Source: a virus
Taxonomy: Duplodnaviria; Heunggongvirae; Uroviricota; Caudoviricetes
Strand: one strand, 5' to 3'
DNA: 5,638 nt
IMG/VR virus record: IMGVR_UViG_2639762987_000001
Shown piece by piece: positions 142-4,989 of the stretch. Both the position numbers and the translations under genes were made by a program. Position 1 is the stretch's first letter. Each line of letters starts with the position of its first letter. The notes beneath the pieces were generated by a model. That model was not told the origin of the DNA. It worked only from the letters and a program-made list of their open reading frames with translations, and made no database searches.

Positions 142-475
142 AACGCACACCTCCGGAAATACCTTCCCCAAGATGCATCAGTTCTTCGTCCGTTCGCTCC
201 GGTATCCCGTTCTCTTCCGGTAAAAGGCTGAAATCAGCCACCGCAGCATCACTGCTGCCGGACACCATTCTCACGATCAATGCCTTCAGCGAGGCAAACT
301 GCGCATCCATCCACACATCACTGAAGCTCTGCATCCGGAAATAATCGCCCCACTCACCAAGCTCAGTGGCCGACATTTCCGACAGCATCCGCCGCCAGTC
401 TGCCCGCCGGAACTCCCGGGCAAGCCGCATGACAAACTGCATTTCCCGCGTCAGGACTTTTCCGGCGTCAGCGCC
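113..475 (-). CDS. T: Tail assembly chaperone T domain; predicted to be expressed only as a G-T fusion by -1 ribosomal frameshift from the G frame
   Basis: ORF-track ORF 113..442 (109 aa). I translated its frame further upstream: it is open back to a stop at 476-478, so it overlaps the 3' end of G in the -1 frame. Slippery site G_GAA_AAG lies in the overlap. Stop TGA at 113-115. Assignment rests on position, frame relationship and conserved G/GT architecture, not on recognised T sequence. Confidence 0.7.
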   Translation of the reverse strand, partial: GADAGKVLTREMQFVMRLAREFRRADWRRMLSEMSATELGEWGDYFRMQSFSDVWMDAQFASLKALIVRMVSGSSDAAVADFSLLPEENGIPERTDEELMHLGEGISGGVRYGPDSQPGH

Positions 476-853: not shown

Positions 854-877
854 AAAAAAGCCCCGGATAACCGGGGC
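854..877 (-). terminator. Intrinsic (rho-independent) terminator-like hairpin between V and G
   Basis: Plus 860-866 gccccgg / 871-877 ccggggc form a perfect 7-bp all-GC stem with loop ataa; plus A6 run 854-859 becomes a U6 tract immediately 3' of the hairpin on the minus-strand transcript. Lies in the 57-nt V-G intergenic space, upstream of the G SD. Confidence 0.7.
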
Positions 878-2413: not shown

Positions 2414-2484
2414 NNNNNNNNNNNNNNNNNNNNNNNNNNNNNNNNNNNNNNNNNNNNNNNNNNNNNNNNNNNNNNNNNNNNNNN
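2414..2484. other. Run of 71 ambiguous bases (N) covering the FII 3' end and Z 5' end
   Basis: Directly visible in the sequence. The FII stop and Z start must lie inside or be distorted by this run. Confidence 1.
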
Positions 2485-2726
2485 CGTTCATGCCGTGTGA
2501 CCGTCCATTGTTGTCCGTCATAAACAACGCGATCCCCGCGCCGTGGGCGGTATCCCGAAGAAAACACCACCAGAGAGACCGCAGGTCCGGACAGAGCATT
2601 CAGCTCTGCCAGTGTTTCTCCCGGGATCACAGTCATATCGACATCATTAATCGAGGCTGTCTTTCCCATCTTTCTGACCGTGATCGCATCCATACGCGCT
2701 GCCAGCCGGGAAAAGGGATCAGACAT
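2485..2726 (-). CDS. FII: Head-tail joining protein (lambda gpFII-like); 3' end lost in N-run
   Basis: Translation MSDPFSRLAARMDAITVRKMGKTASI...RRGDRVVYDGQQWTVTRHE aligns with lambda gpFII (MADFDNLFDAAIARADETIRGYMGTSATI...RRGDTLTIGEENFWVDRV) from memory. ATG at 2726 (plus 2724-2726 = cat) overlaps the stop of the upstream gene as ATGTCTGA. The ORF-track continuation through the Ns to 2373 would overlap conserved Z coding sequence and is not trusted. Confidence 0.8.
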
Positions 2727-3042
2727 TGAGTTTTACCGGCACTTCTTCTGCACTGGTTCCGGCATCTGCCCAGACAACCCCGACCAGCGGATCAGAGCCG
2801 CTGTTAGTCAGCTGAACTTTTCCGGACTTCAGATAAACCTTCTTACCCGTTTTCATGTCATCCGTTTTCAGCTTAGGCAGCATAAACACACCTTCGGTCA
2901 TGCCGTCGCCTGTTTCACCCTGTGGAATATCGGTCAGCGCCACCGCAAAAACATCACCCACCTGCACCAGCTCTCCGCTGCTGATGGCTGCACTGGCAAC
3001 AATCGCCACCGTTTTTCCTTCTTCTACAAAATTCTTTGCCAT
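2719..3042 (-). CDS. Small phage structural-module protein, DUF2190-like (function unknown; candidate head decoration or accessory protein)
   Basis: 107-codon ORF MAKNFVEEGKTVAIVASAAISSGELVQVGDVFAVALTDIPQGETGDGMTEGVFMLPKLK...KVYLKSGKVQLTN...LVGVVWADAGTSAEEVPVKLNV. The small, Gly/Val/Ala-rich pattern resembles DUF2190-family phage proteins as I remember them; this is a recollection, not a search. ATG at 3042 has SD GGAG (plus 3049-3052 = ctcc) 6 nt upstream. The ORF-track start at 3087 lies within the terminator hairpin and is rejected. Stop TGA at 2719-2721. Confidence 0.8.
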   Translation of the reverse strand: MAKNFVEEGKTVAIVASAAISSGELVQVGDVFAVALTDIPQGETGDGMTEGVFMLPKLKTDDMKTGKKVYLKSGKVQLTNSGSDPLVGVVWADAGTSAEEVPVKLNV

Positions 3043-3055
3043 AACTGTCTCCGCA

Positions 3056-3074
3056 CAGCCCCGTTCAGGGGCTG
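3056..3074 (-). other. Stable hairpin immediately upstream of the DUF2190-gene ribosome binding site
   Basis: Plus 3056-3062 cagcccc / 3068-3074 ggggctg form a perfect 7-bp stem with loop gttca. No U-tract follows it on the minus-strand transcript, so it is not a canonical terminator. Confidence 0.5.
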
Positions 3075-3085
3075 ATTTCAGGTAC

Positions 3086-3104
3086 AAAAAAAGCCCTTAC
3101 GGGC
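3086..3104 (-). terminator. Intrinsic terminator-like element after the major capsid gene
   Basis: On the minus-strand RNA: GCCC-GUAA-GGGC (plus 3093-3104; GNRA-type tetraloop, 4-5 bp GC stem) followed immediately by U7 (plus A-run 3086-3092). It is 25 nt downstream of the capsid stop. The stem is short, so likely weak or partial. Confidence 0.45.
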
Positions 3105-3128
3105 CATCAGAGTTGTTGTCTGCGACGT

Positions 3129-4148
3129 TTACGCCGTACATTTCACCAGACCGCGGTGATCAACTGGCGCGACACCGGCGTCAATACGCACTTTCGTTGT
3201 CACGCCATCCACACTGAAGCCCTCCATCTGATCAATATATGGCGTATCCACACCGTTGAGATAAGCCACTTCAATCGTATCGGAGCCTTTTGACGCAGCC
3301 AGGTAGAAGGTGGTCTGGCTGTTATCATCAAGACGAGGCTCTGCAATAACGGTCGCAAAATCTTTCACCGGGTTAATAATACCGGCGTTAATGTCAGCCC
3401 CCTTGACACTTGAGGAGCGAATGACCTGGTTAGCAACAGACTCCATCGCCGTCGGTACCAGTACGAACGCAGGACGAATATTCAGATGACGCTCCCCCTC
3501 TTTCTGAACGCGCATCAACTGGCGGGCTTTATCCAGCGATGCCACGTCCATTGCAGCGCTCTCCAGTACGTTTGCATGTTTCGCTTTATCGAACAGACTT
3601 ACATTATCTGTGGAGATTTTCGGGTTAGACGTCAGAATGGCATAAACCAGATCGGCAATAGTGGATTTCGCCGCACGGCCCAGTTTCATCGGGACATCGG
3701 TCAGCATATTCAGATCATCATTGATAATGGCCTGACGGGTGATACTGAACAGCTCGCCATAGGTCGCCAGTGCAATAGTGGCCTGTTTATCTCCGGTGGT
3801 GACGTATTTATATTCCGCCCCTTCACGCACCTGACGCAGAGCACTGAAGCCCCCCATACCCACACGATGGGCAATTTTAAAATCAGACAACTGACCTTTC
3901 CGCGTCCATTGTTCATAGGTTTCAGGAGCATCTTCCCAGCCCTGCAGAATGGCTTTGTTCGCAACATCCAGCAGAATATTACCGAAGTCAGACGTACTGT
4001 GGGTGAACGCCGCACCGACCATCTGCATCGGGTTATAACCGGAAACCCCAATACCCCGTTCAGTCAGTGACATACGGGCATATTCACGCAGGGTCATCCC
4101 GTTGTAGACATTATCACGTTCGGTTTTTTCAAATCCGGCACGCGCCAT
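3129..4148 (-). CDS. Major capsid protein (HK97-fold type; not lambda gpE-like)
   Basis: Long ORF, MARAGFEKTERDNVYNGMTLREYARMSLTERGIGVSGYNPMQMVGAAF...ending ...VDHRGLVKCTA. It sits immediately downstream of the prohead protease gene and is followed by a terminator, the usual position and context of the major capsid gene. Start ATG at 4148 (plus 4146-4148 = cat) is the first ATG downstream of the protease stop but has only a weak SD. The true N-terminus could lie in N-run 4191-4217; the ORF-track start at 4253 (MICLPCLAGVIR + Xs) reads through Ns and is rejected. Stop TAA at 3129-3131. Confidence 0.88.
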   Translation of the reverse strand: MARAGFEKTERDNVYNGMTLREYARMSLTERGIGVSGYNPMQMVGAAFTHSTSDFGNILLDVANKAILQGWEDAPETYEQWTRKGQLSDFKIAHRVGMGGFSALRQVREGAEYKYVTTGDKQATIALATYGELFSITRQAIINDDLNMLTDVPMKLGRAAKSTIADLVYAILTSNPKISTDNVSLFDKAKHANVLESAAMDVASLDKARQLMRVQKEGERHLNIRPAFVLVPTAMESVANQVIRSSSVKGADINAGIINPVKDFATVIAEPRLDDNSQTTFYLAASKGSDTIEVAYLNGVDTPYIDQMEGFSVDGVTTKVRIDAGVAPVDHRGLVKCTA

Positions 4149-4185
4149 CAGCGCCTGGCGGATCCCGTCCCCCACAAAATTACCG

Positions 4186-4989
4186 TTACCNNNNNNNNNN
4201 NNNNNNNNNNNNNNNNNTCTGATAACGCCCGCCAAACATGGCAAACAGATCATTAATACCGTTTACACGCGCTTTTTGCTCTGCCAGTACCTGCGCACGG
4301 ATACTGTTTTCATCCACCACGGGTGCTGCTGCCTGCACTGGCGTCCGGGAGGCTGCAGGTTCATCATCCTGTACGCGTGGAGCACTGTTGCGTGGCGGAG
4401 TAATCATGTTTCGAATGGATTCCGGCATCTTTTTAAATTCCTCTGTACGTTTTGACTGAATACATGCCATTGCCTTAACGGCTGGCGTCACCTGATCAGC
4501 AAATCCATGTGCCAGACATTCGGCACCGGACATCCAGGTCTCATCCGCCAGCATGGCAGCAATTTCATCGGTGGTTTTCCCGGTTTTCTGTGCATAAGCG
4601 GGTAACAGAACCGCCTCAACCTTATCGAGCAGGTCGGCATAGGTGCGCATGTCCTCCGCATCACCGCCCGTAAAGCCAAATGGTTTATGAATCATCATGA
4701 AAGTGTTTTCCGGCATAATGACCGGGTTTCCCACCATCGCAATGACCGACGCCATTGACGCCGCCACACCGTCGACATAAACGGTAATGGACGCACCATG
4801 TGTTTTCAGCGCATTAAAAATGGCGATGCCTTCAAAGACATCGCCACCCGGTGAATTAATATGGAGATTAATGTGGGTGATATCGCCCAGTGCATTCAGA
4901 TCACTGATAAACTGCTTCGCTGTAACACCCCAGAAACCAATCTCGTCATAAATATAAATATCCGCGTCACTCTGGTGACCAGCCTGCAT
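4186..4989 (-). CDS. Prohead (head maturation) protease, ClpP / S14-like, with a C-terminal extension of about 90 residues (possible scaffold region)
   Basis: Translation from ATG 4989 (plus 4987-4989 = cat): MQAGHQSDADIYIYDEIGFWGVTAKQFISDLNALGD...INSPGGDVFEGIAIFNALK...ASMASVIAMVG...MIHKP... is the typical ClpP-like phage prohead protease core. It starts 14 nt after the portal stop. The ORF-track start at 5250 overlaps the portal gene in another frame and is rejected. The apparent stop TAA at 4186-4188 depends on reading through the N-run. Confidence 0.88.
   Translation of the reverse strand: MQAGHQSDADIYIYDEIGFWGVTAKQFISDLNALGDITHINLHINSPGGDVFEGIAIFNALKTHGASITVYVDGVAASMASVIAMVGNPVIMPENTFMMIHKPFGFTGGDAEDMRTYADLLDKVEAVLLPAYAQKTGKTTDEIAAMLADETWMSGAECLAHGFADQVTPAVKAMACIQSKRTEEFKKMPESIRNMITPPRNSAPRVQDDEPAASRTPVQAAAPVVDENSIRAQVLAEQKARVNGINDLFAMFGGRYQXXXXXXXXXX
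4191..4217. other. Run of 27 ambiguous bases (N) at the protease/capsid junction
   Basis: Directly visible. The last 10 codons of the protease ORF are made up of these Ns, so its stop position is not established. Confidence 1.

Follow-up and report, generated by a model that had tools for sequence, protein, structure and literature searches.

Genes and signals of the locus

The window, by which we mean the whole 5,638-nt stretch of DNA analysed here, is in this region 98.7-99.8% identical to lambdoid phages of E. coli, among them Ayreon, mEp460 and cdtI. Records of the Ayreon/mEp460/cdtI type share a gene order of large terminase, gpW-like gene, lambda-type portal, a 652-aa fusion gene and a terminator, after which follow the gene with which we are concerned here, an FII-like gene, Z, U, V, G/T and the tape measure gene. 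The features of the window that bear on this gene are collected in Table 1.

Table 1. Features around the probable cement gene; positions count from the first nucleotide of the window
Feature	Position	Strand	Basis or remarks
Probable capsid cement/decoration protein gene	2719..3042	-	107 aa, 11.1 kDa, pI 4.7; stop included
GGAG Shine-Dalgarno/ribosome-binding site	3049..3052	-	6 nt 5' of the ATG of the probable cement gene; sequence read directly
Second stem-loop, CAGCCCC-TGAAC-GGGGCTG, 7 bp, GC-rich	3056..3074	-	just 5' of the ribosome-binding site
Terminator-like hairpin, GGCCC-GTAA-GGGCT followed by a run of seven T	3085..3105 (stem 3105..3092)	-	terminator scan
ClpP-like protease/scaffold/major capsid fusion gene	3129..4989	-	NF045540 on both halves; PF25209 Phage_capsid_4, E=2.8e-55
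FII-like head-tail joining gene, visible part	2485..2726	-	PF13856, E=4.7e-14; weak PF05354; PHROG 153

The gene under study is an ORF of 107 codons, free of N masks, which runs on the minus strand from an ATG (3042..3040) to a TGA stop (2721..2719), exactly where the initial annotation had placed it, and its product reads MAKNFVEEGKTV...VPVKLNV. The N-terminus MAKN is the same in all homologues. A longer ORF of 122 aa with a TTG start at 3087 begins inside the T-run of the terminator and, since the homologues start at MAKN, is not a real gene; two ORFs on the opposite strand (2680..3075 and 2855..3217) match no protein family and were likewise rejected as genes. Among 24 near-identical alleles the distinct codon changes comprise 15 synonymous and 10 non-synonymous ones, a pattern that fits a protein under selection. 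The gene is very widespread: of 5426 complete E. coli genomes, 1826 carry it at a nucleotide identity of at least 95%, in as many as six copies per genome, and it almost always lies on the chromosome.

The position between a major capsid gene and an FII-like connector, as described in the initial annotation, is correct as far as the order of the genes goes, but what lies upstream is not a plain capsid gene: it is a fusion of protease, scaffold and major capsid protein (MCP), separated from the ORF by 86 nt that contain two hairpins. The start of this fusion gene was inferred from mEp460, in which the fusion is a single CDS of 1959 nt encoding 652 aa. It resembles the tripartite capsid gene of Gifsy-2, and PHROGs and RefSeq label it only as 'head maturation protease'. 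Its capsid product is the presumed binding partner of the protein discussed here. Downstream, the stop codon of our gene and the ATG of the FII-like gene (2726..2724) share the 8-nt string ATGTCTGA, by which the FII-like gene is translationally coupled to its predecessor, and the tight coupling noted earlier is thus real. The observation that this is the slot in which lambda carries FI also holds, both in the phage records and in the comparison with lambda.

Three N masks of 76, 71 and 27 N (2183-2258, 2414-2484 and 4191-4217) take the place of 181, 156 and 126 nt in mEp460, respectively. Because the masks shorten the sequence, the window shows two artefacts: a fusion gene that seems to consist of two ORFs, broken at the mask 4191..4217, and the 117-aa FII-like ORF, which arises where the 3' end of that gene is masked (2414..2484); gp07 of mEp460 has 91 aa. 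Z-like ORFs that cross N masks are artefacts as well. Inherited names mislead here too: PGAP's 'DNA breaking-rejoining protein' next to the probable cement gene appears to be the FII-like gene, and 'ATP-binding sugar transporter from pro-phage' is how PF13856, its Pfam family, is described. Further downstream, a GGAAAAG motif at 457-463 (minus strand) lies just before the stop of a G-like chaperone gene (453..451), with a T-like ORF in the -1 frame, an arrangement that fits the usual programmed G/GT frameshift of lambda-like tails.

Family assignment, predicted fold and solved relatives

The ORF had been read as a DUF2190-like protein, and the Pfam search proposed as a check agrees: PF09956 is matched with 74 bits against a gathering cut-off of 24 bits (E=1.5e-20), with residues 6-105 covering positions 1-103 of a profile of 103. 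Pfam's present name for this family, formerly DUF2190, is Phage_cement_2, 'Phage cement protein'. PHROG 122, 'head decoration', is matched over the entire protein (E=4.6e-47, residues 1-107 on positions 1-109 of a 109-position profile), and RefSeq uses 'head decoration' also for the counterparts in mEp460 and cdtI, which are 98% identical. A further match, to PF22758 (Phage_cement, the family of E217 gp24 and Pam3 gp6), is confined to the C-terminal part and reaches 24.4 bits, which is under the gathering threshold of 27 bits; we therefore regard PF22758 as a related sister family only and reject membership in it. The PF09956-type family is large, and a profile search at E<=0.001 retrieves 3849 representatives of 50%-identity clusters.

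The names under which the gene is filed differ between databases. PGAP/RefSeq still labels the copies in E. coli genomes 'DUF2190 family protein', JGI labels the protein 'RecA/RadA family phage recombinase', and records of Stx phages carry 'membrane protein' over the matching region. The assignment given here clears up the outdated or misleading naming of a very common prophage gene. A search of the literature for DUF2190, PF09956, COG5471 and mEp460 yielded no functional study, and no virion proteomics, cryo-EM or genetics of the mEp460/cdtI/Ayreon group was found in the searchable literature; one paper states that the heads of the related phage mEp213 had not been studied.

An AlphaFold2 model of the monomer, built from an alignment of 35 sequences, is all-beta and of high confidence (mean pLDDT 91.6, pTM 0.80), the only uncertain part being the first ten residues. 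Foldseek searches of the PDB with this model return phiCD508 gp48 as the top solved relative (TM 0.76, E=8e-5). A probability of 1.00 is assigned to phiCD508 gp48, the phi29 head-fibre base, the HFTV1 stabilisation protein, Sf11, Pam3 gp6, TW1, T1 and FCWL1, almost all of which were solved in place on capsids, and down to an E-value of about 0.6 the recognisable matches are almost entirely reconstructions of phage and archaeal-virus capsids or crystals of decoration proteins. The comparison of a predicted structure with known decoration folds, which had been suggested at the outset, accordingly gives matches to capsid decoration proteins. The sequences of these solved relatives are only 13-18% identical to our protein. 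A family profile of 76 sequences finds phiCD508 gp48 (E=4e-7) and the base of phi29 gp8.5 (E=0.014) among the PDB sequences; searches of the same sequences with the single protein or with the narrow 35-sequence profile returned noise only.

The relationship to lambda deserves a differentiated answer. The initial annotation considered the protein to be dissimilar from lambda D and FI, and at the level of sequence this stands: the comparison with gpD yields a BLASTP E-value of 0.88, an hhalign probability of 0.1% and no match to a Pfam family of gpD, that with gpFI a BLASTP E-value of 22 and no such match in Pfam or PHROG, so that sequence-level kinship to either is rejected. At the level of the fold it does not stand for D, because lambda gpD is partially matched over 58 columns with an rmsd of 2.2 Å, as part of a core of 58-60 columns that is found in gpD and in SHP of phage 21; other decoration proteins are matched much better. 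Judged from the predicted model, our protein shares with gpD the structural class of the trimeric beta-tulip decoration proteins, without being a member of the gpD family.

Several of the relatives have been studied on their capsids. The best solved relative by both profile and fold, gp48 of phiCD508 (PDB 9GAY/9GB0), is similarly small (~125 aa) and covers a T=7 shell of HK97 fold with 420 copies, in the form of trimers that each touch nine MCPs and possess an N-terminal arm (PMC11948020). There are also differences: gp48 is only 18% identical to our protein, its phage is a myovirus with a Gram-positive host and an MCP that is not fused to a protease, and its gene precedes the capsid gene gp49, whereas the gene in the window follows it. 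On the capsid of Pam3, 140 trimers of gp6, which the model matches with a TM of 0.70 (8hdt_G), occupy the 3-fold and quasi-3-fold axes; the N-terminal loop of gp6 takes hold of adjoining capsid subunits at their N-arm, P-domain, E-loop and A-domain (PMC9942802). In contrast to our protein, Pam3 gp6 and E217 gp24, as members of PF22758, are larger (~166 aa) and carry an additional beta domain at the C-terminus. The beta-tulip decoration proteins gpD, gp87/gp88, gp8.5 and TW1 gp56 are capsid-bound trimers with a stabilising function; gpD holds the lambda head during the last 10-20% of genome packaging and is seen as a substitute for the HK97 cross-links, and the base domain of phi29 gp8.5 is a trimeric beta-tulip that touches the capsid (PMC7602432). 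It is this N-terminal base of gp8.5 (PDB 6QYY) that our protein matches in profile and fold. The complete gp8.5 differs in its long helical spike and in the prolate head on which it sits, whereas the protein of the window corresponds to the base domain alone.

Given these relatives we cannot follow the initial annotation in regarding the family as little characterised and the gene as the best candidate of the window for new functional work: Pfam has renamed the family, phiCD508 gp48 (E=4e-7) has been solved on its capsid as 140 trimers, and the syntenic Gifsy-2 capsid is reported to bear trimers at its 3-fold axes. The gene is of an ordinary, catalogued and already known kind, with its family, its name and relatives solved on capsids all on record, and no new function needs to be postulated for it.

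Gene context, domain fusions and intergenic hairpins

The genomic context was compared on contigs of five homologues from other lineages (Bacteroidota of myovirus type, a Shewanella prophage and three of metagenomic origin) and on that of the E. coli allele P0018; a search for related loci with a narrower alignment had retrieved near-identical E. coli prophage copies only and was uninformative on the diversity of contexts. At five of the six loci the PF09956 gene directly follows a Phage_capsid_4 fusion gene of 630-706 aa, which is itself preceded by a lambda-type portal and a GpA terminase. The genes on the 3' side encode a siphovirus tail at some loci and a contractile tail (sheath and tube) at others, and the connector gene immediately downstream varies in the relatives (PF13856, PF05354 or no family), in contrast to the capsid fusion upstream, which is constant. 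Because the capsid fusion is always upstream and the tail type varies, the gene travels with the head module and not with the connector or the tail. The sixth locus (P0347, L090 602-946) is found right at the beginning of an 80-kb contig, on which no capsid gene is visible and host-type genes follow (alcohol dehydrogenase, glycoside hydrolase); it may be the edge or a remnant of a prophage and is uninformative on context.

The closest parallel is found in Gifsy-2, a lambdoid phage of Salmonella with a different immunity region. Its STM1034 protein likewise has 107 aa, with 59% identity to our protein over 106 of 107 residues, and it is encoded after a portal gene, a tripartite protease-scaffold-MCP gene and a spacer of ~90 nt with two hairpins. 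The order behind STM1034, namely an overlapping FII-like gene, Z, U, V, G/T and H, is identical to that of the window. The Gifsy-2 capsid has T=7 geometry and is reported to bear trimers at the 3-fold axes, for which STM1034 is a candidate source.

Fusions involving the PF09956 domain are informative on how the protein might work. Three such domains are arranged in tandem in P0178 (333 aa), and two each in P0195 and P0236; the triple fusion would agree with a trimer as the working unit. An E. coli allele with 90% identity and the same lambdoid context (P0018, L092 4001-4471) continues at its C-terminus into about 15 collagen G-X-Y triplets. Collagen forms a triple helix, and such a tail is for this reason compatible with a trimer. 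Among the 5426 complete E. coli genomes this collagen-tailed allele is found in two, each of chicken origin, compared with 1826 for the plain form. In P0224 (L088 5001-5444) the domain is fused to the C-terminal segment of a phi29 head fibre (PF11133), and the predicted viral structures in BFVD that share the fold include long fibre proteins with collagen and chaperone domains. The domain therefore serves, in such relatives, also as a capsid anchor for head fibres; and because these extensions are C-terminal, the C-terminus of our protein probably faces outward. At the opposite end, N4 and G9 are nearly invariant among 76 sequences of 30-67% identity, in an arm (residues 1-10) that is modelled with low confidence (mean pLDDT 59). 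A conserved arm of this kind would be compatible with capsid binding but does not prove it.

The spacer in front of the gene has a pronounced secondary structure. The terminator-like hairpin is located 23 nt past the stop of the capsid gene (3129), and the records of mEp460 and Ayreon annotate a rho-independent terminator at the spacer between capsid and cement gene. Folding of the spacer as RNA (3043..3128, minus strand) gives a minimum free energy of -30.2 kcal/mol (z=-2.4); a scan of the window against Rfam gave no match. At the same places the Gifsy-2 spacer (L093 3411-3500) also has two hairpins, which differ from these in sequence, and a strong GC stem is present in each of the 66-97-nt spacers of more distant relatives (L084, L086, L088 and L091). 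Lambda has hairpins after both D and E (L003 1781-1835 and 2862-2902), and within the window another hairpin of this kind comes after the major tail gene (860-877, minus strand). Late operons commonly seem to carry such hairpins near the genes of their most abundant products, where the hairpins probably stabilise the transcript or attenuate it weakly and would be read through under late antitermination.

A probable capsid cement protein and its alternatives

We read the gene as encoding a capsid cement (decoration) protein, which would bind to the expanded T=7 head as a trimer, at 3-fold and quasi-3-fold sites, and we put the probability of this reading at roughly 0.85. It is carried by the family membership, the class of the predicted fold and the conserved linkage to the capsid gene. 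Head assembly may proceed as follows: the protease-scaffold-MCP fusion would release its MCP domain, and in the course of DNA packaging the T=7 shell would expand; the 11-kDa protein would then bind to the outer surface at the icosahedral and quasi 3-fold positions, with some 420 copies forming about 140 trimers. Each trimer, held together by the all-beta core, could clamp three neighbouring capsomers and so stabilise the head in place of the covalent cross-links of HK97. The flexible N-terminal arm (MAKNFV..) probably reaches the N-arm and the E-loop of the MCP, as it does in related cements, and the C-terminus probably points outward.

In this role the protein would be the lambda gpD of its phage group. 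The two are of similar size (107 aa compared with 110 aa), come from phages with lambdoid heads, presumably act in an equivalent manner at 3-fold sites and share part of the fold, and both genes are flanked by terminator-like hairpins. They differ in gene order: in lambda D precedes E, whereas the present gene follows the MCP and occupies the slot of FI. Lambdoid heads with a tripartite capsid gene would thus have their cement gene placed after the capsid gene and not before it. An argument against the cement reading is that a terminator-like hairpin separates the gene from the capsid gene, although a cement should be required in equimolar quantity with the capsid protein; lambda, however, has similar hairpins after both D and E.

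The domain fusions suggest a competing role, in which the protein would be a display or anchor module for fibres or adhesins on the capsid surface, like the base of the phi29 fibre, and stabilisation would be secondary or absent. The profile and fold matches to the base of gp8.5 favour such a role, as do the phi29-fibre fusion P0224, the collagen repeats of P0018 and the fibre proteins in BFVD. The allele of the window, however, is a bare 107-aa domain without any fibre part, the collagen allele is confined to two genomes against 1826 with the plain form, and a bare base domain bound to the capsid is operationally nothing else than a cement or decoration protein; we consider a primary anchoring function improbable. 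Somewhat less credible still is a head-completion or connector protein that acts together with the FII-like protein at the portal vertex. The translational coupling through ATGTCTGA and the position at the boundary between head genes and head-tail joining genes would suit such a protein, but neither Pfam nor PHROG gives a match to a connector family, the structural matches are decoration proteins of the shell and not adaptors or stoppers, and in the relatives it is the downstream connector gene that varies and the upstream capsid fusion that is constant.

An analogue of lambda gpFI, that is, an accessory of DNA packaging that is absent from the virion, might be expected in this slot between the capsid gene and FII. 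We nevertheless hold this to be very improbable: the direct comparison with gpFI gave only E=22, no other gene of the phage is a candidate for the decoration role, the fold and the family are those of decoration proteins, and the trimers reported for Gifsy-2 would need a gene. Of the virion-associated roles that the initial annotation had left side by side, decoration or cement is thus favoured by family, PHROG, fold and solved relatives, while head completion and a packaging accessory found no support. There is finally the old COG5471 label, according to which the protein would be a phage recombinase of RecA/RadA type. Nothing speaks for it apart from the inherited database names ('predicted RecA/RadA family phage recombinase', 'recombinase RecA'). 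A predicted all-beta protein of 107 residues with no Walker A/P-loop motif and no RecA-related match in Pfam or NCBIfam, whose gene lies inside a late structural operon, is hardly conceivable as a recombinase, and fold, motif, family and operon effectively refute this identity.

On the cement reading, a probable gpD analogue with an outward C-terminus could be of modest practical use, as a handle for phage display and capsid engineering in lambdoid phages of the Gifsy-2/mEp460 type. A more far-reaching idea, which we offer as speculation and think rather unlikely to be correct, is that the position of the gene is a natural swap-in site for functions of the capsid surface, with the outward C-terminus of the cement occasionally acquiring collagen or fibre tails by recombination, and that the hairpins regulate the timing or the ratio of cement to capsid protein and are not plain stabilisers of the mRNA.
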